Shown: piece by piece, positions 27,219 through 44,502 of the stretch | Numbering within the stretch: position 1 is the first letter of the stretch | Layout of the letters: every line of letters starts with the position of its first letter | DNA from: an uncultured delta proteobacterium | Lineage (GTDB): Bacteria; Desulfobacterota; RBG-13-43-22 | Length of the DNA stretch: 64,000 nucleotides | Direction: 5' to 3' | Assembly: GCA_963802945.1 (NCBI GenBank) | Contig: CAWDKY010000030.1 | Span: 224,001-288,000 of the forward strand | The notes under the pieces: model-generated | The model's input: only the letters and a program-made list of their open reading frames with translations | Told to the model about the DNA's origin: nothing | Databases searched by the model: none | Position numbers and translations under genes: made by a program

Positions 27219-28420
27219 ATGCAAAGAGTACTTGAAGACATCAGAGTTCTGGATTTTGGGCGATTCATTTCATGCCCGTATTGCGGCATGATTCTGGCGG
27301 ACATGGGTGCGGAAGTTATCCGGGTTGACCGGCCCGGAGGAGAAGAAGATCGTACCCACAGCCTTATAGGGCCGGACGGCAATAACCTGTCCTTTCCAAG
27401 TTACGCCCGGAATAAAAAGGGCATTACCTTGAACCTTTCGCAAAATAAACCGGAGGCCCGGGAGATTTTAGATTCCCTGGTGAAGCAGTGTGATGTGGTG
27501 ATTCACAATTTCACACCGGCCGCTGCCGAATCCATGGGTCTGGCCTACGACCGTCTGACTGCCGTTAAACCGGATATTATTTTAACGGCCATTTCCTGTT
27601 TTGGAAGCGAAGGCCCCTATCGAAATCGAACGGGATTTGATTTCATCGCCCAGGCTATGTCCGGGGCCATGAATTGCGGAGGATTTCGCCGACAAACCGC
27701 CTGTCAGGGCCTTCTTTAATCCCATGGATTATGGAACAGCCCTGGCTGCCGCCGTCGGTACCCTTCTGGCCCTGCGCCACCGGGACAAAACAGGAGAAGG
27801 CCAGATGGTTGATCTTGGCCCTCTTAAGGACGGCCCTTTCTTTTACGGCCCCGATCATTGCCGAAAAGGAAGTGCTGGGCCGGGACCGGCCTATGATCGC
27901 CAACCGCGCCCCTTATCTGACGACCACGGATTTATTTGAATGTCAGGACGGCTATGTGTTCATCGCCTCCATCATGAACAGCATCTGGAGACGCCTGGCT
28001 AAACTTATCGGTCATGAGGAACTCATCCCTGATCCGGAGCTATATAATGACTTGAGCCGGTTTGAACATAGAGACAAAATCGATCCCCTGGTAGCGGACT
28101 GGATAAGGGTGCGCACCGTGGAGCAGGTGCTGACGGAAATGGAAGCCGCCCATATCCCCTGCAGCCCCTACTACGAACTGGGCCAGGTGTCGCAAGATCC
28201 CCATATTCAGGAAACCGGCATGCTGCCTTATATCGATATGGAAGTCCCGGGTTTGAAACCATTACCCGTCAGCCCCAATCCGATCAAGCTGTCCAAAACA
28301 CCCGGCAGGATAGAAACCCGTGCGCCTCGCCCTGGAGAACACAATTTGGAAATTTACGGCAGATTACTGGGCTACAGCAAAGAAACCCTGGACGAGTTGG
28401 TTGCCAAAGGGATCATCTGA
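27219..28420 (+). CDS. Class III CoA transferase (CaiB/BaiF), two apparent frameshifts near 27685 and 27818
   Basis: LADMGAEVIRV, RNKKGITL, then DYGTA...TGEGQMVD, then APRPGEHN, in three successive frames. Confidence 0.85.
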
Positions 28421-28706: not shown

Positions 28707-29339
28707 ATGATCCAATCGACAAATCGAAGGGCAAAAAAAATTATTGTTGTGATCCTGGGGCTGGTTGCCGCCCTAGGCCTGACCTTTTGGTTGAAGTGGG
28801 TATCCGCGGAAACCAGGTCCCTCAAAAACGATAGAACTATCGAATCCAAGGGGAACCTTGATAGGGCTTTCGAAACAGTCCGAAAGGTGCTCCAGAGTCC
28901 CCGTTGTCAGAACTGTCATATCCCGGGAGATGCCCCACTCCAGGGTGATCTCGGTAAAGTCCATGTTATGGATGTTAAACGGGGGGAAGACGGTCGAGGG
29001 AAGACGGACTTGCGGTGCACCGACTGCCATCAAAGTAAAAATGGAAGCCTGCCTCATACACCGCCGGGTGCCGTTGATTGGCGTTTACCCTCCCCTTCCA
29101 CTCCCATGGTTTTTATCAAGCTGTCGGCCAATGAATTGTGCAGTAATTTGAAGAACCCCGCCAAGAATGGGGGAAAAACGCCCGGCCAATTGATAGATCA
29201 TATCTCTAAAGACCGATTGGTTCTCTGGGGATGGGCCCCCGGGCCGGGCAGGAAAAAGCCGCCTGTCTCCCATAAGGAATTTGTGGCTGCTTTTTCTAAA
29301 TGGGTGCGTGCCGGTATGCCCTGTCCAAAAAACCGTTAA
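28707..29339 (+). CDS. Exported diheme c-type cytochrome-like protein
   Basis: N-terminal hydrophobic segment; two CxxCH motifs (CQNCH, CTDCH). Confidence 0.75.
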
Positions 29340-29382
29340 CGTTTTAGGAAATGGGGTTTTTGTTTTTGGGGAAAAAAGGAAT

Positions 29383-29938
29383 ATGGATTTTGATTTAACC
29401 GTTATCCCTGCCGAGAGAATTGAGCAGGCCATTTTTCTGATTCGTGGACTTCGGGTTATGATTGACGCCGACCTAGCTATGCTTTATGGAGTGACAACGA
29501 AGGTCCTCAATCAGGCTGTCAAACGCAACAAGGATCGTTTTCGGGAGATTTCATGTTTCAACTGACTGCGGAAGAAAAAATGGAGGCGGTCACAAATTGT
29601 GACCACCTTTCCCGGCTTCGCTTTTCACCAGTCCTCCCTTATGCCTTTACCGAGCATGGCGTCCTTATGCTTGCCAATATTTTAAACTCGGACCGCGCTG
29701 CGCGGGTTAGTGTTCAATTGTCCGTACCTTGGTACGATTGCGAGAAACATTGTCCACCCATGCTGATCTGGCCAGAAAAATCACCGAGATGGAAAAGAAG
29801 TATGATGCTCAGTTCAAAGTGGTTTTTGACGCCTTGCGGGCCTTAATGGCTCCGCCACTGAAAACGAAACGAAAGATCGGCTTTGATCTCAAGGAAAAAC
29901 AGGCACGATACAGCACAAAGAAACCTTCGCGAAAATAG
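29383..29938 (+). pseudogene. ORF6N (KilA-N-like) DNA-binding protein, two frameshifts
   Basis: [32 protein letters not shown] and EKKYDAQFKVVF...KIGF spread over three frames. Confidence 0.88.
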
Positions 29939-31508: not shown

Positions 31509-31615
31509 ATTGAAAGATTTCCGGAAAATTTTATGTTTTTCAGGCCGCCAAGGGTGAAATGGAATCTTCTTTGAAATCACAATTGGTGATTTCAAGTTAA
31601 GCAAAAGCGAAAATA
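31509..31615 (+). pseudogene. Internal plus 3'-end remnant of an ORF6N paralog
   Basis: IERFPENFMF..., palindrome encoding LKSQLVISS, then gcgaaaatag as at the ends of other paralogs. Confidence 0.75.
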
Positions 31616-31900
31616 GGAGTTGTTGACTTTAACCAATTGATATATTCTAAAGTATCCGTTCAAATGAAAGGCGAAGGAGTTTAACCCTTTGAATCCTCGA
31701 ATCCTTGGCTCTGCTCGGCTCAGCTCGCCGCAAGCCTTGAACCCTGTTTTTCTTGAGGCTGGCCTAGGAAGCAGTCCTCTAACACCCCCATTTCTTGAAA
31801 AAAGAAATGGGGGTTCGTTTTGAGGTGAATAATAAAAAGGAATAAATCAAAAATAATCGGACCATGGGAAACGATAAGTTGTTTTAGGACCAAGGTCCCC
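31616..31900 (+). repeat. Type-F leader module + shared terminator-like hairpin + tail ending aaggtcccc
   Basis: Homologous to 36400-36633 and 39842-40137. Confidence 0.85.
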
Positions 31901-31944
31901 TTCAACTATGAATTCAAAAACCATTTGGAGCAAGGAGGAAGGTA

Positions 31945-34694: not shown

Positions 34695-35048
34695 TTGACT
34701 TTAATTTTTAACAGGTTTAATAAGTTATATTACCTTAGCTTCATAACTATAAAGCGAATAGCCGTCAACAGGCCTAACCGCTGTTCGCCGAACAACGAAC
34801 GATCCGGCTTCCATTCGATCGGCTTTGCCGATCTCAGGGGGAGACTCCCTGAAGGGAGTCGGACAGGGAGCCTCTTTTGAAGCCCGGCATATCTGCTCCT
34901 AACTGGGAGCCTTTTCAAAAGCTCGACGAAGTCGAGCGGGTCCGGGCGGAACGAACTACGAACGACGAACGTTTTTAGTACCGAAAGGCGTCCATGAAGC
35001 AGTTCAACCAAACCCCATTTTTTTAAAAAAGAAATGGGGATTTTTTTT
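34695..35048 (+). ncRNA. Candidate structured leader RNA (type B) with promoter and terminator-like hairpin
   Basis: TTGACT-17 nt-TAATAA, gcttcata...aaagcgaatagcc, variable insert, ccgaaagg..ccatgaagc, ccccattt../..aaatgggg-T tract. Confidence 0.55.
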
Positions 35049-35069
35049 ACAATCTCTCATTGAGATCTT

Positions 35070-35612
35070 ATGGAATCTTTAGTGCCAGTGGAGGTTATTG
35101 AAAAGAAAATATTTTTGATTCGAGGTCAAAAAGTTTTGCTGGATAGAGATCTTGCTGATCTCTATGATGTGGAAACCAGGGCGTTGAACCAAGCGGTTCA
35201 ACGCAATATTAAGAGATTCCCGAATGATTTCATGTTTACTTTGACCAGAGAGGAGATCATGAGGATATCACAAATTGTGACATCCTCCGACATTAAATTC
35301 TCCAAACAAGTTCGTGCTTTTACGGAGCAAGGCGTGGCTATGCTTTCCGGAATCCTGAATAGCGATCGAGCGATAGAAGTGAATATTCAAATTATGCGGG
35401 CTTTTGTAAAACTCCGGGAGATGATCGCTACTAATAAAGACCTGGCCCGGCGGCTGGATAATCTGGAAAAGAAATATGACAGCCAGTTCAAAGTGGTCTT
35501 TGACGCCCTGCGGGCTTTAATGTCCCCGCCGGCCAAAACCAAACGTAAAATAGGTTTTGATTTAAAGGAGAAGCAGGCACGGTACGGCATAAAGAAATCT
35601 TCGCGAAAATAG
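35070..35612 (+). CDS. ORF6N domain (KilA-N-like) DNA-binding protein
   Basis: [42 protein letters not shown] and KRKIGF motifs. Confidence 0.92.
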   Translation: MESLVPVEVIEKKIFLIRGQKVLLDRDLADLYDVETRALNQAVQRNIKRFPNDFMFTLTREEIMRISQIVTSSDIKFSKQVRAFTEQGVAMLSGILNSDRAIEVNIQIMRAFVKLREMIATNKDLARRLDNLEKKYDSQFKVVFDALRALMSPPAKTKRKIGFDLKEKQARYGIKKSSRK

Positions 35613-35618
35613 GAGTTG

Positions 35619-35835
35619 TTGGCTTAACTGGTTAATAGGTTTATAAATAAATCACTTAAACCTGGCTTCATAAATATAAAGCGAATAGCCCTCAACAGTC
35701 AGCAGTCAGCCTAAGCCCTTTAGATTTTTCCTGACCGCCGATCGCTGATTACTGACAGCTCTAAACCAAAGGATCGTCCATGAAGCAGTCCCCCAAGACC
35801 CCATTTTTTAAAAGAGAAGATGGGGTTTTTGTTTG
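35619..35835 (+). ncRNA. Candidate type-B leader RNA copy
   Basis: ggcttcataaatataaagcgaatagcc...cagtcag heptamer stem...ccatgaagc plus hairpin. Confidence 0.55.
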
Positions 35836-35850
35836 CGGAGGAAATTCTAA

Positions 35851-36399
35851 ATGGATTCTATAATCCCAGTAGAAGTGATTGGACGAAAAATTTTATTGAT
35901 CCGCGGCCAAAAGGTGATGCTGGATGCCGATCTGGCAAAGCTTTACGGGGTGACAACCAAGAGATTGAATGAACAAGTTAGGCGGAATCAGGGACGATTT
36001 CCTGAAGATTTTATGTTCCAATTGAGCTCTGATGAAAAAGCTGAGGTGGTCGCAATTTGCGACCACCTTGCCAAACTTAGATTTTCCCCTACTCTCCCCC
36101 ATGCCTTCACTGAACATGGAGTTCTCATGGTTGCCAGTGTGCTTAATACCACAAAAGCTATTGAAATTAGCGTCTTCGTTGTACGGGCTTTCGTTAAAAT
36201 GCGGGAGATGGTTATCTCAAACAAAGAAATTGTCCGGCGGCTGGATAATCTGGAAAAGAAATATGACAGCCAGTTCAAAGTGGTCTTTGATGCCCTGCGG
36301 GCATTGATGGCCCCGCCACTGAAAACGAAACGAAAGATCGGCTTCGACCTCAAAGAAAAACAGGCACGGTACGCCATAAAGAAATCTTCGCGAAAATAG
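35851..36399 (+). CDS. ORF6N domain DNA-binding protein
   Basis: [35 protein letters not shown] and KRKIGF motifs. Confidence 0.92.
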   Translation: MDSIIPVEVIGRKILLIRGQKVMLDADLAKLYGVTTKRLNEQVRRNQGRFPEDFMFQLSSDEKAEVVAICDHLAKLRFSPTLPHAFTEHGVLMVASVLNTTKAIEISVFVVRAFVKMREMVISNKEIVRRLDNLEKKYDSQFKVVFDALRALMAPPLKTKRKIGFDLKEKQARYAIKKSSRK

Positions 36400-36633
36400 G
36401 AGTTGTTGACTTAAACTAATTGATATATTCTAAATTATCCGTTCAAATGAGACGCATAGGAGTTTAACCCTATGAATCCTCGAATCCTTGACTCTGCTCG
36501 GCTGAGCTCGCCGCAAGCCTTGAACCATATTTTTTTGAGGCTGGTCCATTTAGCAGTCCGACAAGACCCCATTTTTTGAAAAAGAAGATGGGGTTTTTAT
36601 TTGGAGGGAAGGTGACTCAGAAACAACGTCCCC
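36400..36633 (+). repeat. Type-F leader module + shared hairpin, ending aacgtcccc
   Basis: Near-identical to 39842-40045. Confidence 0.85.
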
Positions 36634-36693
36634 GCCGGCAGACTACAGAAAAAGATTGACAAAAAGATCAAATAAGTTATCATAATATTTATC

Positions 36694-36978
36694 ATGTTGA
36701 TTTCGTACAAACCGCCATCTAACAAATTTGTAAAAAAACAGGCTAGGTCGTTTCAACTGGTAATCGAAGACGAGGTCGAAGCCGTCATTCAAAATCCGTT
36801 AGCCGGAGAGACCAAGAAGGGTGATTTGACCGGTTTCAGGATTCATAAATTTTCTTTTCAGGGTCAAAAATTCCTCTTGTCTTATGTTATTCGAACCGAG
36901 GGAATCGTTTTTTTTACGATCGGCTCCCATGAAAATTTTTATCGGGAATTAAAAAAGTATTTAAAGGAGGTGGGTTAA
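36694..36978 (+). CDS. RelE/ParE-like toxin
   Basis: 94 aa; NP..GE.KKGDL.G.R.HKF and IGSHENFY motifs. Confidence 0.85.
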   Translation: MLISYKPPSNKFVKKQARSFQLVIEDEVEAVIQNPLAGETKKGDLTGFRIHKFSFQGQKFLLSYVIRTEGIVFFTIGSHENFYRELKKYLKEVG

Positions 36979-37287
36979 ATGATCACCGCCGAAAAAGTGT
37001 ATAAAGAAATTTTGGATATGCAGGTCAAGGAGAGAGAAAAACTCTTCACCGTTATTGCCAGGAAGGGTTTTGAGAAAGATTCCTATTCCCACGAAGAGGT
37101 TTTCGGCGATATACGGGAATCTCCCTTTATACTCAGAGAAGCCGCCGAATATCTGGAAGTGGCCGAAATAACCCTGAGGCGATGGGTGCAATCCGGTCTC
37201 ATTCCGTATGAAAAAGTTGGAAGGAATATCGTTTTCGATCCTGATGAACTGAGGCGGGTTAAGAAATCAAAGACGAAAAAAAGATAA
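36979..37287 (+). CDS. Excisionase/MerR-like HTH protein, probable antitoxin
   Basis: EAAEYLEVAEITLRRWVQSG.IP..KVG; directly abuts the toxin gene. Confidence 0.8.
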   Translation: MITAEKVYKEILDMQVKEREKLFTVIARKGFEKDSYSHEEVFGDIRESPFILREAAEYLEVAEITLRRWVQSGLIPYEKVGRNIVFDPDELRRVKKSKTKKR

Positions 37288-37357
37288 AAAGCCAATTATC
37301 AAAAAAAAGAAGTTATCACTTCATCCCCAATTTCTTAACAAAGCAGGCAAAACCTTA

Positions 37358-37426
37358 CCCGAAAGGCTGTCCATTAAGCAGTCCATCATGACCCCATTTT
37401 TTAAAAAAGAAGATGGGGTTTTGTTT
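37358..37426 (+). terminator. Copy of the shared hairpin module
   Basis: ccgaaaggctgtccattaagcagtcc...accccatttttt..aagatggggttttgttt. Confidence 0.8.
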
Positions 37427-37449
37427 AAATAATTTTAATTGAGGTTCCT

Positions 37450-37779
37450 ATGAATTCTTTAGTGCCGGTGGAGATTATTGAAAAGAAGATTTTTTTAATC
37501 CGTGGCCTTAAAGTGATACTGGACACTGATTTGGCAGAGCTTTATGGTGTTGAAACAAAATATCTAATTAAAGCGGTCAAGAGAAATCTTTTGCGGTTTC
37601 CTGATGATTTTATGTTCCAACTCAATAAAGAGGAATCTGAAAACTTGAGGTTCCATCTTGGCACCTCAAGTCAGTGGGGAGGACGGCGTTATTTTCCCTA
37701 TGCCTTTACCGAGCAGGGGGTGGCAATGCTTTCCAGCATCCTAAGCAGTGACCAGGCTGTCAAAGCGAATAGCCTTTAG
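37450..37779 (+). pseudogene. 3'-truncated ORF6N paralog
   Basis: ORF6N motifs run to ...SDQAVK, then the sequence switches to aaagcgaatagcc of the type-B leader. Confidence 0.88.
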
Positions 37780-37920
37780 CCTTCAGCAGTCAGCCTGAGC
37801 CCTTTAGGTTTTTCCTGACCGCCGATCGCTGATTGCTGACAGCTCTAAACCAAAGGATCGTCCATGAAGCAGTCCCCCAAAACCCCATTTTTCTAAAAAA
37901 GAAATGGGGGTTTTGTTTTG
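37762..37920 (+). repeat. 5'-truncated type-B leader + shared hairpin
   Basis: Near-identical to 35678-35835. Confidence 0.85.
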
Positions 37921-37999
37921 AAGTGGATAATAGAATGGGAGGCAGTCTTAAGATTGGGGCTTGATTTGTGATCCTATTTTGAGTACAATAGAACCCATT

Positions 38000-38596
38000 A
38001 TGAGTACGAAACAAATTCGCGATAATCTCTCCATGGCCCTTTTCGGCAAGACCAAACGAGCCTTGCTGGCCTTGTTTTTTTCCAACCCGGAGGAATCCTT
38101 TTACCTACGCCAGATTGCCAGGATAACCGCTGCCGGTCAGGGATCTGTTCAGCGAGAGTTAAAAAAATTAGCCGAGGCCGGCATCATCGAGCGTATTGAA
38201 CAGGGCCGACAGGTCTATTTCAGAGCCAAAAGTAACTGTCCCATTTTCGATGAGCTAAAGGGGCTGATATTAAAAACCGCCGGATTGGTGGAGGTGCTTC
38301 GATCCGCTTTATCGCCGGTGTCCGATAAGATCGATCTGGCTTTCGTATTTGGTAGTCAAGCCCGAGGGAAAGCCAAGGCTGCCAGTGACATTGATTTATT
38401 AATTGTCGGGAATGTCGATGAGCTTGAACTACATCGGTTGATCAGCCAGACAGAGGGGCAACTGAACCGCTCCATCAATTACACCTTTTTGACCGCTCAA
38501 GAGTTTAAAAAACGCAAAAAAGAAAAGGGGGGGTTTCTCTCAAGAGTCCTGGCAGGGGAGAAGATTTTCATTATAGGAGACGGGCATGGATCTTGA
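38000..38596 (+). CDS. Winged-HTH plus minimal nucleotidyltransferase (MNT) antitoxin
   Basis: N-terminal HTH (YLRQIARIT...VQRELKKL); FGSQARG....SDIDL = GS-x10-DxD. Confidence 0.9.
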   Translation: MSTKQIRDNLSMALFGKTKRALLALFFSNPEESFYLRQIARITAAGQGSVQRELKKLAEAGIIERIEQGRQVYFRAKSNCPIFDELKGLILKTAGLVEVLRSALSPVSDKIDLAFVFGSQARGKAKAASDIDLLIVGNVDELELHRLISQTEGQLNRSINYTFLTAQEFKKRKKEKGGFLSRVLAGEKIFIIGDGHGS

Positions 38597-39023
38597 GACA
38601 CTCCTCAAAGAGGGACGAGTTCATCAGGAAAAAATATCGTCTCAAGAGATCCATAGGGCCTTGGCTAGAGCGGAAAGGGATTTAAAAACAGCGAGAAAAA
38701 TAATGGCCGAGGACTGGGATTGGGGTTTCTCGATCACCTATAATGCCGTCCTCCAAGCTTCCCGGGCTTACATGTTTGCGCAGGGCTATCGCCCATCTCA
38801 TGGAGAAGGTCATAAAAATACTTTCGCCATCATGAAAATCTTCATGGGGAAAGAGTACGAGGACTTAATTTCCTATTTTGACCGCATGAGGAATAAACGA
38901 AATCAAGCTATTTATGATGTGGCCGGATTGATTACCGAAACGGAGGCCAGAAACCTATTTTCCAAAGCGACTGAATTTATAAAATTGATCCGCCGCAGTC
39001 TGACAGATAAAAATAGCGGCTAA
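38586..39023 (+). CDS. HEPN domain protein (toxin partner of MNT)
   Basis: AERDLKTA, YNAVLQASRA and RNQAIY; overlaps the MNT gene. Confidence 0.85.
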   Translation: MDLETLLKEGRVHQEKISSQEIHRALARAERDLKTARKIMAEDWDWGFSITYNAVLQASRAYMFAQGYRPSHGEGHKNTFAIMKIFMGKEYEDLISYFDRMRNKRNQAIYDVAGLITETEARNLFSKATEFIKLIRRSLTDKNSG

Positions 39024-39150
39024 TTTTTAGAACTTAGCTTTATTGATTCCGGCAAACTGTTAACTAAACCCTCAAACTTACTTGTTGCGGACACCACTAA
39101 TCATGAAAATAATTAATGGGGTTAACTGCCACGCCGTTCACTCCGCCTGC

Positions 39151-39270
39151 GGTCCTCGAATCCTCCTAAGCTCGTCGCAGGTCCTTGAATCCTGTTTTCC
39201 TGTTAAGACTGGTCCATGAAGCAGTCCGAAAAGCCCCCATTTTTTGAAAAAGAAGATGGGGATTTTTTAA
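39151..39270 (+). repeat. Partial type-F leader + shared hairpin
   Basis: cctcgaatcct...ctggtccatgaagcagtcc...cccccatttttt..aagatgggg. Confidence 0.8.
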
Positions 39271-39292
39271 CCAATCTCTCATTGAGGATCTT

Positions 39293-39865
39293 ATGGAATC
39301 TTTAGTGCTCGTTGAGATTATCGAGAAAAAAATTTTATTGATCCGCGGCCAAAAGGTGATGCTGGATGCCGATCTGGCAAAGCTTTACGGGGTGACAACC
39401 AAGAGATTGAATGAACAAGTTAGGCGGAATCAGGGACGATTTCCTGAAGATTTTATGTTCCAATTGAGTCTGATGAAAAAGCTGAGGTGGTCGCAATTTG
39501 CGACCACCTTGCCAAACTTAGATTTTCCCCTACTCTCCCCCATGCCTTCACTGAACATGGAGTCTCTCATGGTTGCCAGTGTGCTTAATACCACAAAAGC
39601 TATTGAAATTAGCGTCTTCGTTGTACGGGCTTTCGTTAAAATGCGGGAGATGGTTGTGTCAAACAAAGAAATTGTCCGGCGGCTGGATAATCTGGAAAAG
39701 AAATATGATTCCCAGTTTAAAGTGGTCTTTGACGCCCTGCGGGCTTTAATGTCCCAGCCAATAAAGCCTAAGCGAAAAATTGGTTTTGACTTGAAAGAGA
39801 AGCAGGCCCGATACAGCATAAAGAAATCTTCGCGAAAGGAGGAGTTGTTGACTTTAACTAATTAA
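39293..39865 (+). CDS. ORF6N protein, near-copy of 35851..36399 with two compensating indels
   Basis: -1 at gagtctg and +1 at gagtctctc shift about 30 codons. Confidence 0.85.
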   Translation: MESLVLVEIIEKKILLIRGQKVMLDADLAKLYGVTTKRLNEQVRRNQGRFPEDFMFQLSLMKKLRWSQFATTLPNLDFPLLSPMPSLNMESLMVASVLNTTKAIEISVFVVRAFVKMREMVVSNKEIVRRLDNLEKKYDSQFKVVFDALRALMSQPIKPKRKIGFDLKEKQARYSIKKSSRKEELLTLTN

Positions 39866-40195
39866 TATATTCTAAATTATCCGTTCAAATGAGATGCATA
39901 GGAGTTTAACCCCATGAATCCTCGAATCCTTGACTCTGCTCGGCTGAGCTCGCCGCAAGCCTTGAACCCTGTTTTTTTTGAGTCTGGTCCATGAAGCAGT
40001 CCCCCAAAACCCCATTTTAAAAAAAAGATGGGGGTTTTGTTTTGGCGTGGATGATAAAAGAGAGTAGAATGCTTGGGTCAAATCAAAAACAATCGGACAA
40101 ATGGGGAGAAATAAGTTGTTTTAGAACCAACGTCCCCTCTTAATGAAGCAACCGCACTAGGCCCCATTTTAAAAGAAGATAGGTTTTTGTTTTGG
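39842..40195 (+). repeat. Type-F leader + hairpin + tail to aacgtcccc, then a degenerate second hairpin
   Basis: Homologous to 31616-31900; the degenerate hairpin is at 40143-40192. Confidence 0.8.
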
Positions 40196-40258
40196 TTAAG
40201 GACAAAATTTAAACTGTTTCAGACCTGACTTCCCCCTTTACAGTTTATAATACAGGCC

Positions 40259-41089
40259 ATGATAGAAACCATCTTGGTGGGCAAGGTAGATGAATCCTTT
40301 CTTCTGGAGGTCCAAAAATGGGCGGAAGAGGTTGTTGGGAAAACCGAGCCCGGGACGGTCCCGGATCGTATTTCCGTTTACCTCTGGGAGAATGGAAACG
40401 ATTTTAAGGAATTTGATGCCCGAGAAAAAGCCGAGTTGGGGGTAGTCACCGGTGATGAATCCAACTTTCTGGCCACCCACGAGGCCTGGAGGGGTTACCC
40501 TAGGATTCATATATCCCTGGAAAAGATCCAGGGAATTCCTGAAGAAGTCATCCAGGGCGTAGTTCAACATGAGATCGGCCACGCCCTGGTCCATGGTAAG
40601 CCGGAATTTTATCAATTTCTTTTTTCCGAACTGCTTCAGGAAACCGCTAGGTCGGCGGGACTGGATCTACCCCAGCTCCAGCAGTTGGTTTATTTGCTTT
40701 CCGTGGCTCTGAAAGACGAAGAAGTGGTCAGGCTATTAAGTGAAAGGGGATTAGGAATTTACCAAAATCGGGTACTGGAATATTTAATAGAAGATACGGG
40801 GGAGGAGCAACAGACTTGGGAACTGATTAAGGATATGCCGGCTCTGAGAAAATTAGCCTGGGCCGCTTTTTCAAAAACCCTTCTGCCGATTGAAACTTTG
40901 GCCGGATTGGGCGATCCGGAATCCAGTCCTCTGATAGAGCAATGGGAGAAGGCCTATTCCTGGCTCACCAACCGGGAAAGGACCGACCTAAGGGCTTATG
41001 CGCGGTTGGTCATTGAATTGCCCTCTAAAAATTTCCAGGATCGATTGGAACAAGCCGTCTTGAGATTGATCAACAGCGCTTCACTATGA
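40259..41089 (+). CDS. Hypothetical protein with HExxH (possible zinc metallopeptidase)
   Basis: VVQHEIGHALVH with a downstream D/E cluster. Confidence 0.6.
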   Translation: MIETILVGKVDESFLLEVQKWAEEVVGKTEPGTVPDRISVYLWENGNDFKEFDAREKAELGVVTGDESNFLATHEAWRGYPRIHISLEKIQGIPEEVIQGVVQHEIGHALVHGKPEFYQFLFSELLQETARSAGLDLPQLQQLVYLLSVALKDEEVVRLLSERGLGIYQNRVLEYLIEDTGEEQQTWELIKDMPALRKLAWAAFSKTLLPIETLAGLGDPESSPLIEQWEKAYSWLTNRERTDLRAYARLVIELPSKNFQDRLEQAVLRLINSASL

Positions 41090-41208
41090 AATGAACTGGA
41101 ACTCTGTGTATATCTGAGAGTTGACCCAGGCCCGATATGGCATAAGGAAAGTACGGGGAGTTGGAAAGCGGTTGGTTTAATTAGTATAGCGTCTCCGTAC
41201 TTCCATTC

Positions 41209-41691
41209 TTAGTATCCCAATTCCTTTAATATTGAAGAAAGTCTTTGTAATCGCTCGCTGAGTAGTTCATCATCATTGCTTAACGCTTGCTGAAATAATT
41301 TTATATCCTCATCTATTTTGGGGTTGTCTGTACATACTGCTATTGTCATGGAATCGCCTTGCAGACCGACTCTGTCAATTACTGTTTTTTCAGAATCATA
41401 AAGTTTTGTATGACGATAAGCCTCTGAAGCAAAATACTGTTTTGCTCTGCAAACAAAAATTGCAAGATCAAGCACACGGTGAAGGGGTAATTCTTCAGAT
41501 TGCCTTGACCACTTTTCACCTGTATGTCTCCAAACTTTTGCTGAGATATCAACGTTCCCCCTGTCATTCCATTGAGCCAAGCCTAATGAAAGCCCCTTGG
41601 CATCGGTCTTGTAAGCATATCGGCCATCAACATTTTCGTAATTTTCAGAAACAATAACAGGTTTATGTTTTAATATTGCTGGTATTTTCAT
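41209..41691 (-). CDS. Conserved hypothetical protein (DUF6530-like)
   Basis: MKIP..LKHKPVI..NYE.VDG...GLAQWN..ISAKVWR..KWSRQSEELP recalled from memory; AT-rich. Confidence 0.65.
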   Translation of the reverse strand: MKIPAILKHKPVIVSENYENVDGRYAYKTDAKGLSLGLAQWNDRGNVDISAKVWRHTGEKWSRQSEELPLHRVLDLAIFVCRAKQYFASEAYRHTKLYDSEKTVIDRVGLQGDSMTIAVCTDNPKIDEDIKLFQQALSNDDELLSERLQRLSSILKELGY

Positions 41692-41835
41692 AATTTTAAT
41701 ATTCCTTTATGTAGTTATTTACTTGTGTAGTCAACTAATAGTTTAGTAAATAACTTATCATACTAATAACAAACCTGTCAAGCAAAAAAGTAATTGACTA
41801 TTTTTAGGTTGCTCCCAAAAACAATTCCCTTGGGG

Positions 41836-42063
41836 TTGACTTTAATTTTTAATAGGTTTAAATAAGTTATATTAACTTGGCTTCATAAACATAAAGCAAA
41901 TAGCCTTCAGTATTCAGCAATTAGCCTGGATGTTTTTAAGGTTTCTTTGAACACCGAACTCTGAACGCTGAACGCCGAACGTTCCCAGAACCGAAAGGCT
42001 AGCCCATGAAGCAGTCCCCCAAGACCCCATTTTTTTGAAAAAGGAGATGGGGTTTTTGTTTTG
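41836..42063 (+). ncRNA. Candidate type-B leader RNA copy
   Basis: TTGACT-17-TAAATA; gcttcat/atgaagc and tagcctt/aaggcta pairings; terminator-like hairpin. Confidence 0.55.
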
Positions 42064-42360
42064 GGGCGGAAGCAGGGCCATTTACTTGAATGATTTTTTA
42101 GTTGGGAAATAAGGGTTGGGGTTCGACCATAGACAGCCCTATTTTCATGTCCCGGCTTCCGATCCGCTCGGTCCGCTCGACCTGGCCGACTAGTGGTGTC
42201 AAGACCTGCCTTGTGCAGGCATACGCCCCTGGCGGGGCATGACTGTTCAAAAGGCAATTTAGTCAGCAGCGTCCGGGACAGCAAGGAATCCGGCATTTTG
42301 TTTACATTTAAGATTTGCCCCCTGGATCTATGAAAGTCAACCCAATTAAGGGAGGGAAAA

Positions 42361-42798
42361 ATGGAAAAATTGACCTTTGAATTCGTGAATCCGGGGGATG
42401 TCCTTCCTCCATTCATCCGATCCGTCAGTCAGGAAACCTTTTGGAAATACGCCGTGGCCTCTTTCGATTATAACCCTGTCCACAATGATCCTGAATGGGT
42501 CAAAACGGCCCAACCCTTTAAAATACCTTTTACGGTGGGGCATGGTATGATGACTATGTCTTTTATGACCTCTCTGGTTACCAACTGGGCCTTACCGTCC
42601 ATGCTTCAGGTTCGGAAGATTGTTTCTAAATTTACTCGGCCGGTTGAGCAGGGATGGGAAATTATCTGCACCGGAGTTGTCTCGGAAAAGCACTTTATCG
42701 CCAAAGGGAAAAACTATGTGGTGGTGGATGTCAAAGCTGAAAATCGGCAGGGTGACTTGCTGGCCCTCAGTGAAATCGAAGTGGTCTTTCCCGATTGA
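42361..42798 (+). CDS. MaoC-like (hot-dog) dehydratase
   Basis: YAVASFDYNPVHND...GHGM and F.RPV..G motifs. Confidence 0.88.
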   Translation: MEKLTFEFVNPGDVLPPFIRSVSQETFWKYAVASFDYNPVHNDPEWVKTAQPFKIPFTVGHGMMTMSFMTSLVTNWALPSMLQVRKIVSKFTRPVEQGWEIICTGVVSEKHFIAKGKNYVVVDVKAENRQGDLLALSEIEVVFPD

Positions 42799-42855
42799 GA
42801 CCGGGGGTTTTATCGATTGGATCAATTTCGAGATTCAAAGAAAGGAGAATGAACC

Positions 42856-43434
42856 ATGAGTCATGCCGATTTAGCCAAATATTTCAAAACAGAAAAGCAG
42901 CTCAAATTCAGCACCGATTTTTTTACCGATGCCGAAAACTATGAAGTTTGGGATGAAATTGATTTTTCCGATCTACAAGAAGTTGACGGTGAAAACACCT
43001 TTGAAATAAAGGCCGAAGACATCAAATTTTACGCCGAAGGAGGCCTTGACGACAACCCGCTGATGAATGACGAGGAATACGCCAAGAAATCATCCTACGG
43101 CGGGCTGGTGGCCCACCCGATTTTTATAACCTCCATCTGTTTTTGGTGTGTGGGCGTCAAGGGGAAGGGAAATTGGATCAGAACGCCCGGGGCGAGAAAC
43201 CCTGGTCAGGTTTTGGAAATCTATGAATATTTCAAAGTCGGAGAAACCATTCATGTAACAATGAAGCCCCATGACCGCTATATCAAACGGGGTAAATGTT
43301 ATCTCCAGTATCAAATGAACGCCTTTAACCAGGATAATGTTTTGAAATGCAGAATGTTTGCCACCCTGATCCTGCCTCGGACACGCCAGGATATAGGGAA
43401 ATTTCTTAAAGGCATCCGCGGTCTAAGTGATTAG
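42856..43434 (+). CDS. MaoC/FAS1-like dehydratase partner subunit
   Basis: IKFYAE..LDDNPL..DEEYAKKS.YGGLVAHP. Confidence 0.8.
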   Translation: MSHADLAKYFKTEKQLKFSTDFFTDAENYEVWDEIDFSDLQEVDGENTFEIKAEDIKFYAEGGLDDNPLMNDEEYAKKSSYGGLVAHPIFITSICFWCVGVKGKGNWIRTPGARNPGQVLEIYEYFKVGETIHVTMKPHDRYIKRGKCYLQYQMNAFNQDNVLKCRMFATLILPRTRQDIGKFLKGIRGLSD

Positions 43435-43442
43435 CCAAGAAA

Positions 43443-43508
43443 CCGGAAGGATGGTCCTTGAAGCATCCTATAATACCCTATTTTTTGAAAAAGAAGATGA
43501 GGTTTTTT
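43443..43508 (+). terminator. Degenerate copy of the shared hairpin module
   Basis: ccggaagg..gtccttgaagca...accctattttttgaaaaagaagatgaggtttttt. Confidence 0.7.
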
Positions 43509-43509
43509 A

Positions 43510-43644
43510 GTCACAATTGGATGATGAGATTCCAATTTGGAATACCAAAAACGAGCGATGAACCAGTCGCAATTTGCGACCGGTTCCAAAAATAAGATTA
43601 GCCTGGGAGTTTGAGTCTTTGAGATCACAAATTGTGATCTCAAA
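43510..43644. repeat. Intergenic cluster of ORF6N-type palindromes
   Basis: attccaatttggaat (43529), gaaccagtcgcaatttgcgaccggttc (43560), tttgagatcacaaattgtgatctcaaa (43618), plus half-site gtcacaattg (43510). Confidence 0.85.
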
Positions 43645-43688
43645 ATTAAAAGGGGATTAGTTAAAGAAGTCATTTGAAGAGGATCTTG

Positions 43689-44255
43689 ATGGAAAAAAAG
43701 GAGTTAATCCCGCAGGAAATCATTGAGGGCAAAATCTTCCTTATCAGAGGTAAAAAGGTCATGCTCGATCGGGATCTGGCTGTTCTTTATGGAGTTGAGA
43801 CAAAGGTCATAAACCAGGCGGTCAAAAGAAATTCTCAAAGGTTTCCAGAGGATTTTATGTTCCAGTTGTCCACTGAGGAGACTCAGCAATTTTTAAGGTC
43901 ACAATTTGTGACCTTAAAAAGAGGACAGCATTACAAATACTTACCTTATGTTTTTACAGAGAATGGTGTGGCCATGCTCTCCAGTGTCCTTAATACCGAG
44001 AGGGCAATCCAGGTCAATATTCAAATCATGCGAACCTTTACCCGGTTAAGGGAGATCATCGCCACTCATAAAGATTTGGCGCGGCGTCTGGATGACCTGG
44101 AGAAAAAGTACGATAGCCAGTTCAAAGTGGTCTTTGACGCCCTGCGGGCTTTAATGGCCCCTCCTGTTAAGCCAAAACGAAAAATAGGTTTTGATCTCAA
44201 GGAGAAACGGGCACGGTATTCCATAAAAGGTGTTCAACGGGAGAAAAGGAAGTAA
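43689..44255 (+). CDS. ORF6N domain DNA-binding protein
   Basis: [41 protein letters not shown] and KRKIGF motifs. Confidence 0.92.
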
Positions 44256-44312
44256 CGTTTTCTTCTGCTTTTCCACCGCCATCTTGCCACTAACACCTTT
44301 ATTCGGGAGGGA

Positions 44313-44502
44313 TTGACTTTAATTTTTAATAGGTTTAAATAAGTTATATTAACTTGGCTTCATAAAGATAAAGCGAATAGCCAACCGTTGATCGCCGAAC
44401 GACGAACTACGAACGACAAACGTTTTTAGTACCGAAAGGCCGATCCATGAAGCAACCTACCAAGACCCCATTTTTTGAAAAAGAAGATGGGGTTTTTGTT
44501 TT
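44313..44502 (+). ncRNA. Candidate type-B leader RNA copy
   Basis: Same promoter, gcttcata..aaagcgaatagcc, cgaacga heptamers, ccatgaagc and hairpin. Confidence 0.55.

Follow-up and report, generated by a model that had tools for sequence, protein, structure and literature searches.

Between positions 34,695 and 44,502 of a 64,000-nucleotide stretch of DNA from an uncultured delta proteobacterium (contig CAWDKY010000030.1, positions 224,001 to 288,000; hereafter the window), one arrangement recurs next to ORF6N antirepressor-like genes: a promoter-like box, segments able to pair with each other, an interior that differs from copy to copy and a terminator-like hairpin. What kind of element is this repeat, named type B? 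A preliminary description proposed an undescribed attenuator, a riboswitch-like leader or a small RNA (sRNA) that controls read-through into ORF6N or cargo genes. Our analysis indicates that the type-B repeat is a mosaic and not a single unit. It is most likely one of several body types in a modular family of promoter-to-terminator cassettes, with a predicted non-coding RNA gene of ~140-320 nt, and such cassettes are restricted to a single genus-level group of uncultured Thermodesulfobacteriota-type metagenome-assembled genomes (MAGs). The account that we tentatively prefer, and to which we give somewhat less than an even chance, is that type B would be a stand-alone sRNA gene and that its terminator would, in addition, insulate the gene that follows.

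A mosaic repeat and its shared 3′ module

All five occurrences of the preliminary description are present on the + strand, with starts at 34695, 35619, 41836 and 44313 and, for the truncated copy, at 37760-37762, and the layout is as it stated: TTGACT, 17 nt, TAATAA, TAAATA or TATAAA, then differing heptamer-built interiors. Copy 1 (34695..35048), the long form, has the promoter-like sequence TTGACT-17-TAATAA at 34695-34723, a body at 34738-35001 with additional GC-rich hairpins, and a 3′ module with terminator at 34993-35048. Copy 2 (35619..35830) carries a diverged promoter, TTGGCT-17-TATAAA, which begins at the stop codon of the ORF6N gene 35070-35612, and its interior is a heptamer hairpin (CAGTCAG / CTGAYNN). 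The 5′-truncated copy (37760..37914, + strand), 90% identical to copy 2 (repeat family D7), is fused at AAAGCGAATAGCC to a broken ORF6N gene, 37450-37779. Copy 3 (41836..42057), with TTGACT-17-TAAATA, is followed by ~300 nt of non-coding DNA and then by MaoC genes, and copy 4 (44313..44497), the shortest form, lies 57 nt past the ORF6N gene 43674-44255. The core ATAAAGCRAATAGCC (15 nt, up to two mismatches) has six matches in the window, where 0.36 would be expected: five within the element and an unrelated one at 2715. The terminator arm ACCCCATTTTTT (up to one mismatch) has 11 matches against 1.5 expected, nine of them within 35.0-44.5 kb. A repeat search of the window recovered a 53-74-nt 5′ block three to four times (D9, D10) and a 3′ block ten to eleven times (D3, D6).

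The 3′ block, ccatgaagc plus hairpin, had been taken for a part of type B. This assignment does not hold: GAAAGGCTGGTCCATGAAGCA-N11-terminator is a separate module, with the layout (C)CGAAAGGCTGGTCCATGAAGCA, 11 nt, then a CCCCATTTTTT-loop-AAGATGGGGTTTTT hairpin, and it also ends type A, C and D bodies and ordinary cassettes, the same block standing at 31766, 36547, 37372, 39215, 39990, 40143 and 43457. The window holds ~12 copies and the genome ~20; they stand behind type A bodies (31607, 36390, 39832), a short type D body, and ParE/HTH (helix-turn-helix), MNT/HEPN and MaoC genes as well as type B. The whole genome gave 23 matches to the module pattern (a few weak and likely due to chance) and none to a reversed-pattern control. 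A small peptide encoded by the 3′ module was considered and dropped, since indels in the T run and the loop shift the frame and some copies contain stops.

The element is undescribed. As the preliminary description had it, no known riboswitch or T-box fits: a covariance-model search of Rfam 15 returned no match at the gathering score in the whole window, and the seven weak matches at E<=5 between 31500 and 44700, far below gathering, include no T-box, riboswitch, C4 or IsrK. Conservation runs from 4-6 nt 5′ of TTGACT, a limit that suits a promoter, to ~20 nt past the U tract. The 3′ hairpin is an intrinsic terminator, with a GC-rich stem 91-96% paired and a U tract on the transcribed strand, and terminator-like sites are enriched (36 against 16.6±4.0 expected), eight of them being 3′ modules.

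Outside this genome, the 3′ module was found in multiple copies in 12 of the 13 other genomes of the genus and in 16 of the 20 other genomes of the family; beyond the family, 6 of 40 sampled genomes had a single match each, with one or two mismatches, which is about the control level. A scan of one genome per species matched 99 stretches, and among the best 80 of these 99 the full 3′ module with its hairpin occurs in 24, of which 23 are titled delta-proteobacterial or Thermodesulfobacteriota and one is a Pseudomonadota-labelled MAG. The type-B 5′ block GCTTCATAANNATAAAGCRAATAGCC is rarer than the 3′ module, with six copies in its own genome, presence in 4 of 21 family genomes and 27 metagenome loci, three of them false (L055, L060, L066). 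Pooling of all sources gave 26 distinct full-length type-B copies of 135-318 nt. A covariance model built from 10 type-B copies had matches in 18 of the 21 family genomes, including diverged relatives, named B2, in genomes G001, G004, G008, G009, G010 and G011. B2 keeps A(G)AGCAAATAGCC, the heptamer hairpin, GCTGACAGCTCT and the 3′ module and lacks the 30-nt AAGTTATATTAACTTGGCTTCATAAACATA; as it was found with a model derived from type B, the B2 set is biased towards that model. All relatives are MAGs, and the alignments consist of closely related, recombining copies. Among viral contigs there was no match to the 5′ block and one to the 3′ module, which lacks the hairpin and is due to chance, and a phage origin was rejected on these grounds. 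The aldo/keto reductase beside copy 1 has no orthologue (E<=1e-60) in the 13 other genus genomes, hence these offer no empty site for comparison.

The interiors of the 26 type-B copies vary in length (~35-215 nt) and in content, and comprise runs of (C/U)GAACNN heptads, hairpins with complementary heptad arms (CAGNNUCAG against CUGAYNN), a small GACCCTGCCCCTCGCAGGC hairpin, sets of GC-rich hairpins and a 150-nt AT-rich insert. One optional interior hairpin covaries between copies (GCUCGAC/GUCGAGC, GCUCGGC/GCCGAGC, GCCCGGC/GCCGGGC). The heptamers are not peculiar to type B and are part of a genome-wide excess of period 7. Tandem Repeats Finder reported 1996 tandem arrays in the 4.37-Mb genome, 546 of period 7, 88 of period 6 and 300 of period 8, with AACGACG and AACGCTG among the period-7 unit families, so that tandem period-7 units of this kind are abundant across the genome. 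They often form complementary arms around a spacer, reminiscent of the classical short tandemly repeated repetitive (STRR) sequences of cyanobacteria. Among the papers listed by a literature search on STRR and heptanucleotide repeats, none was relevant. Bacterial intergenic heptamer repeats, as described by Rehm et al. 2015 (PMC4692102), are likewise tandem period-7 units, mostly intergenic, variable in number and with hairpin arms, but here the units are (C/U)GAACNN and CUGAYNN instead of the G-rich GGGNATC and sit between conserved non-repeat end blocks.

Folding and the case for a small-RNA gene

The GCTTCAT-ATGAAGC pairing proposed as a closing stem is possible in every window copy, and across the 26 type-B copies this outer stem, a 9-bp candidate helix and the terminator are together 90.7% paired. 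The outer stem is absent from B2, however, and is therefore a feature of the subtype and not of the family. The second proposed stem, tagcc/ggcta, forms in copies with GGCT but, as judged by eye, cannot form in those with GGAC or GGAT, and was replaced by a helix that fits both B and B2, in which 5′ A(A/G)AGC(G) pairs with 3′ (C)GCU(U/C)U (AAAGCG/CGCUUU). In an alignment of 16 B and 8 B2 sequences, eight pairs, one of them in the inner helix, changed on both sides, against 4.1±1.2 after shuffling, and 3 of 500 shuffles reached eight. The terminator shows five pairs with two-sided change, for instance CCGCAU/AUGCGG and CCCCGU/ACGGGG, and contains U·G pairs, which the minus strand could not form. 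The minimum free energy (MFE) of the + strand lies below that of shuffled sequences in the four type-B copies, with z of -2.0 to -5.6 (copies 1 to 4: -5.6, -2.9, -2.0 and -3.9).

The conserved unit thus spans a promoter-like box to a real terminator, and an sRNA gene is therefore the simplest reading. Transcription would start a few bases past the TAAATA box. The RNA is predicted to fold into the inner helix AAAGCG/CGCUUU around a freely exchangeable hairpin region, to carry, exclusively in the type-B subtype, an additional 30 nt at its 5′ end, of which GCUUCAU could clamp AUGAAGC of the 3′ module, and to end at the shared intrinsic terminator. At the junctions of accessory genes where these cassettes lie (ORF6N, toxin-antitoxin (TA) pairs, restriction-modification), the strong terminator would insulate the next gene, and a gene within 20-32 nt, often ORF6N, would be expressed only by read-through; the same element may thus act as an sRNA gene and as a constitutive, leaky leader. 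In all sequence examined, an ORF6N gene lies within 200 nt of the 3′ module in 23 of 92 distinct modules, and in 12 of these 23 the gap is 20-32 nt, which leaves no space for a promoter, so that read-through must matter for those ORF6N genes. Of the original proposal, the novelty of the element and, for these 12 gaps, the need for read-through are therefore retained, but not the riboswitch.

Several observations weigh against this sRNA gene. The -10 boxes of the four type-B promoters (TAAATA, TAATAA, TATAAA) all end in A, so that a sigma-70 consensus rule calls none of them, and the region holds no excess of promoter-like sites (16 against 19.3±4.7 expected); the conserved promoter and terminator of the preliminary description are to be read as a genuine terminator with compensatory changes and a box that is conserved but fails the rule. 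The 26 type-B copies on their own show no covariation (0.091 against a shuffle mean of 0.091, with 246 of 500 shuffles at or above the observed value). In their outer stem, GCUUCAU/AUGAAGC, no pair changes on both sides, and 6 of the 26 copies have the CATTTAGCAG 3′ variant, which disrupts the two central pairs while the 5′ side stays uncompensated. At its covarying position the inner helix is AU in 9, GC in 5 and GU in 2 of the 24 sequences and unpaired in the remaining 8; the non-pairs mostly combine a B 5′ end with a B2-type body, which indicates recombination between modules. The minus strand, as for any inverted repeat, also falls below shuffled sequences (z of -2.9, -1.9 and -1.6), kinship of the sequences alone can outdo a shuffle control without any structure, and the highly similar end blocks beside very variable interiors could equally reflect recombination or gene conversion at the DNA level. 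Structural support overall is modest: pair counts do not exceed shuffles for type B taken alone, and reveal some compensatory change in the inner helix and terminator once B2 is added.

Among the closest known systems are the multi-copy sRNA families with their own promoter and Rho-independent terminator, including 3′-UTR sRNAs with an internal promoter. Here too a promoter-like box, a 140-320-nt non-coding body and a stem with U tract are found in several paralogues per genome, often starting at the stop codon of an upstream ORF6N gene. The cassettes differ in that bodies A, B, B2, C and D have one conserved ~65-nt 3′ module, that the repeat-hairpin interiors are exchangeable and that the copies sit at cassette junctions of accessory islands.

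Rival accounts of the element

The strongest rival, which we consider doubtful, is a junction repeat acting at the DNA level, in which the end blocks (promoter block, 3′ module and a conserved type-C block that follows some terminators) would be portable homology or sites for the shuffling of ORF6N, TA and restriction-modification cassettes, the hairpins would be palindromic DNA and any RNA would be functionless. One 3′ module ends at least four different bodies as well as plain gene cassettes, a copy may carry either 3′ variant, CATGAAG or CATTTAG, irrespective of its 5′ block, and chimeras are common, the STRR-type B copies joining a B 5′ end to a B2-like body and so leaving an A·C mismatch in the inner helix. 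Scars are present as well: the deletion join between ORF6N 37450 and type B, ORF6N 3′ fragments at loci L016 and L043, a replaced promoter at L041, and many broken ORF6N copies. The arrays resemble TA-rich cassette arrays, and like integron arrays with attC sites they consist of small accessory and TA cassettes on the same strand, each followed by a hairpin-forming repeat of ~60-150 bp. An integron was nevertheless rejected, the best match to the integrase model TIGR02249 scoring 79.6 bits against a cut-off of 265; the repeat ends in a U-tract terminator with G·U pairs and without R''/R' boxes (RYYYAAC/GTTRRRY boxes were not seen by eye), and the cassettes carry promoter-like boxes of their own. 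No recombinase was found among the window open reading frames (ORFs) scanned, 25-53 kb. The G·U pairs of the terminator and the two-sided changes of the stems fit selection on RNA, and conservation maps to the promoter-to-terminator unit, not to terminal inverted repeats with target duplications. A miniature inverted-repeat transposable element was also dismissed, its inverted ends being only 7 nt and inside the conserved unit while conservation extends to the promoter block and beyond the U tract, as was a system of repetitive extragenic palindromes with their Y1 transposases (REP/RAYT): the genome has Y1 transposases, none of them near the arrays, and no link was found.

We judge it unlikely that the element is a regulated cis-acting leader, in which a protein, ribosome, metabolite or RNA would set terminator read-through into ORF6N or cargo genes. 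Such a leader would suit the ORF6N genes 35070, 35851, 37450 and 39293, which start 20-27 nt past the U tract with no space for a promoter, and phage antirepressor genes are classically restrained by leader RNAs, as by P1 c4 and P22 sar. The 3′ module also contains a Shine-Dalgarno-and-start-like sequence, GAAAGG, 7 nt, AUGAAGCAG, that type-B GCUUCAU could mask, but the masking strand is missing in B2. An upstream ORF or translational coupling from this start through the terminator was tried and fails, as 6 of 23 modules have no AUG and T-run indels shift the frame; its stops overlap the ORF6N start in 5 of the 23 and otherwise lie 7 to 175 nt upstream. The riboswitch-like leader of the preliminary description, or an attenuator that senses a ligand, is unlikely, given an interior of swap-in heptamers and optional palindromes that holds no conserved aptamer, the lack of a covarying P1 and mixed downstream genes, several of which have a promoter-like type-C block of their own. 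No alternative antiterminator pairing was seen by inspection or in MFE folds, no dedicated search having been made.

A trans-acting antisense RNA of the c4/IsrK kind, which would pair with ORF6N mRNAs or with AUGAAGC of ~20 other 3′ modules and silence the paralogues, appears very unlikely. ORF6N proteins do match phage antirepressor families (phrog_4792, E 1.8e-32), the 26-nt type-B 5′ block is nearly invariant across species, like a seed, and GCUUCAU is complementary to a motif in every 3′ module. However, this complementarity spans only 7 nt, and the 26-mer has no other antisense match in the genome, all six matches being the element. Duplexes of three type-B bodies with five ORF6N start regions (15 pairs, 15 shuffles each) were no better than shuffles (z of -2.7 to +1.1), and pairing with ORF6N start regions was dropped for this reason, as was membership of the c4/IsrK class for lack of an Rfam match. 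The phage immI-type leaders to which that class belongs (P1/P7 c4 RNA, Gifsy-1 IsrK) do place a promoter, a structured RNA and an antirepressor-like gene in the same orientation, and their logic of silencing an antirepressor would fit. Here, by contrast, there is no supported complementarity to ORF6N starts, an intrinsic terminator replaces translational or Rho control, the setting is non-prophage with no real matches in viral contigs, and the element also precedes TA, hsdM and metabolic genes. Type III TA systems of the classical ToxIN kind, with ToxI-like repeats of ~34-50 nt before an endoribonuclease toxin, were rejected too: the units here are of 7 nt and the downstream ORF6N is of a DNA-binding type.

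A broader view, which we regard as quite unlikely, is that the 3′ module, the type-C block and the exchangeable A, B, B2 and D bodies would form an undescribed genus-wide cassette-junction system. Portable promoter-sRNA-terminator junctions would then assemble and insulate defence, TA and ORF6N genes in integrase-free integron-like arrays, with ORF6N proteins and adjacent RNAs as cognate protein-RNA control pairs. To our knowledge, almost no regulatory RNAs are known from uncultured Thermodesulfobacteriota. If the preferred sRNA gene is transcribed, it would represent a lineage-specific family that is unusual in its modular construction, with many interchangeable bodies attached to a single 3′ handle and terminator, and would offer a handle on the insulation and shuffling of accessory islands and on the role of chromosomal ORF6N paralogues. 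In these organisms the element lies where defence, TA and antirepressor-like cassettes meet, and should it be only a recombination repeat it would still be a useful marker of cassette boundaries, otherwise ordinary.

ORF6N genes, other bodies and neighbouring features

The ORF6N gene 35070..35612 (+ strand; PF10543, E 1.2e-30, besides the phrog_4792 match) lies between copies 1 and 2, from 21 nt past the terminator of the first to the promoter of the second, and the next one, 35851..36399 (+), starts 20 nt past the terminator of copy 2 and has a stop codon that overlaps a type-A promoter. Pfam also identified ORF6N at 43674..44255 (+), upstream of copy 4, in truncated form at 37450-37779, as a partial match at 39293-39865 and as a split pair at 29281-29846. 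A sequence search of PDB with ORF6N gave nothing below E = 0.17, and among the ORF6N papers listed by a literature search no title or abstract opening deals with an associated RNA. Beyond ORF6N, the stretch holds two gene pairs, one ParE-like/HTH and one MNT/HEPN, together with two MaoC genes and DUF6530.

Of 15 type-B copies, seven begin where an ORF6N gene or ORF6N 3′ fragment ends, and in six ORF6N is the next gene. Behind 21 modules of the genome the next gene is ORF6N in seven, the others including HigB-like, MazEF-like, ParE, MNT, two hsdM-like, hsdR-like, AAA ATPase and MaoC genes, named, except where Pfam was run, by reading N-terminal sequences. Genes downstream of the element comprise ORF6N, MNT/HEPN, MaoC, hsdM, an 82-aa ORF, a HigB-like gene and small ORFs. 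ORF6N numbers range from 0 to 12 per genome, many with internal stops, and roughly track the number of 3′ modules, with the exceptions of G002 (7 modules, no ORF6N) and G016 (2 modules, 11 ORF6N). The flanks of ORF6N are quite different in other genera of the family, so ORF6N does not need the element.

The remaining 3′ modules in the window, all on the + strand, follow type A bodies or genes. Those at 31766..31815 (variant AGGAAGCAG plus terminator; repeats D5, D6), 36547..36598 (also the CATTTAGCAG variant) and 39990..40038 end the type A bodies 31607-31800, 36390-36597 and 39832-40040, the last being followed by a type-C junction. The module at 37372..37422 (CATTAAGCAG) is directly 3′ of the ParE-like/HTH pair, with ORF6N 37450 27 nt on; that at 39215..39268 is 3′ of the MNT/HEPN pair, with ORF6N 39293 24 nt on; and a degenerate one at 43457..43508 (CTTGAAGCAT, CCCTAT/ATGAGG) is directly 3′ of the two MaoC genes.

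Type A bodies have the promoter style and the 3′ module in common with type B. They start at an ORF6N stop codon, hold short repeats of the GAATCCT type and carry a small ORF preceded by AGGAG-N8-ATG (MNPRILDSARLSSPQAL...), the C-terminus of which varies between copies because the T-run length differs. The type-C block lies directly 3′ of a terminator at 40040-40140 and 31815-31905 and, elsewhere in the genome, at C53:84938, C53:83463 and C15:347158 (minus strand). Its five genome copies consist of a promoter-like TTGGSG-17-TAGAAT, of which the TTGGCG-17-TAGAAT at 40042-40070 was called by the promoter scan, a hairpin AATCAAAAACAATCGGACAAATGGGGG..AAGTTGTTTTAGAACCAACGYCCCC and then a cargo gene (hsdM-like, hsdR-like, ATPase, carboxyl transferase).

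A further multi-copy small unit of the genome, unrelated to these bodies, was inspected in 13 copies (among them C28:52149, C33:122182, C27:16955 and C15:175121; L103-L106). It has TTGACT-type promoter-like boxes, GTTTTCTTGTTGGCAACCTTTTACCAAGGGAGTGTCGATGGAAGAATAATAGA and then a terminator CCCCATTTCTC..GAGGTGGGGTTTTT, with GGGAG followed by a mini-ORF of 2-4 codons (MEE*), and matches nothing in Rfam at E<=0.1.

Several genes of the window appear broken. Two overlapping ORFs (27219-28420) together make up a family III CoA-transferase, the ORF6N pair 29281-29846 is one gene split in two, and ORF6N 39293-39865 differs from its near-twin 35851 by 1 nt (gagtctg against gagctctg), which shifts the frame. 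An ORF6N 3′-end remnant (..QARYGIRKVRG..) at 41120-41195 adjoins DUF6530. At L041 (G005:C171) a homologous remnant is fused to a type-B copy at the promoter palindrome AAGTTATATTAACTT, with the promoter replaced, and this fusion is a scar of recombination that coincides with the predicted transcription start or lies close to it. Perfect palindromes, GGTCGCAATTTGCGACC or GATCACAAATTGTGATC, occur at 36040-36075, 39481-39509, 43556-43585, 43618-43645 and 43890-43915. Inside ORF6N genes they encode an SQ(F/I)(A/V)T motif, they are also present in the intergenic ORF6N-like remnants 5′ of ORF6N 43674, and two of them score as minus-strand terminator-like sites.

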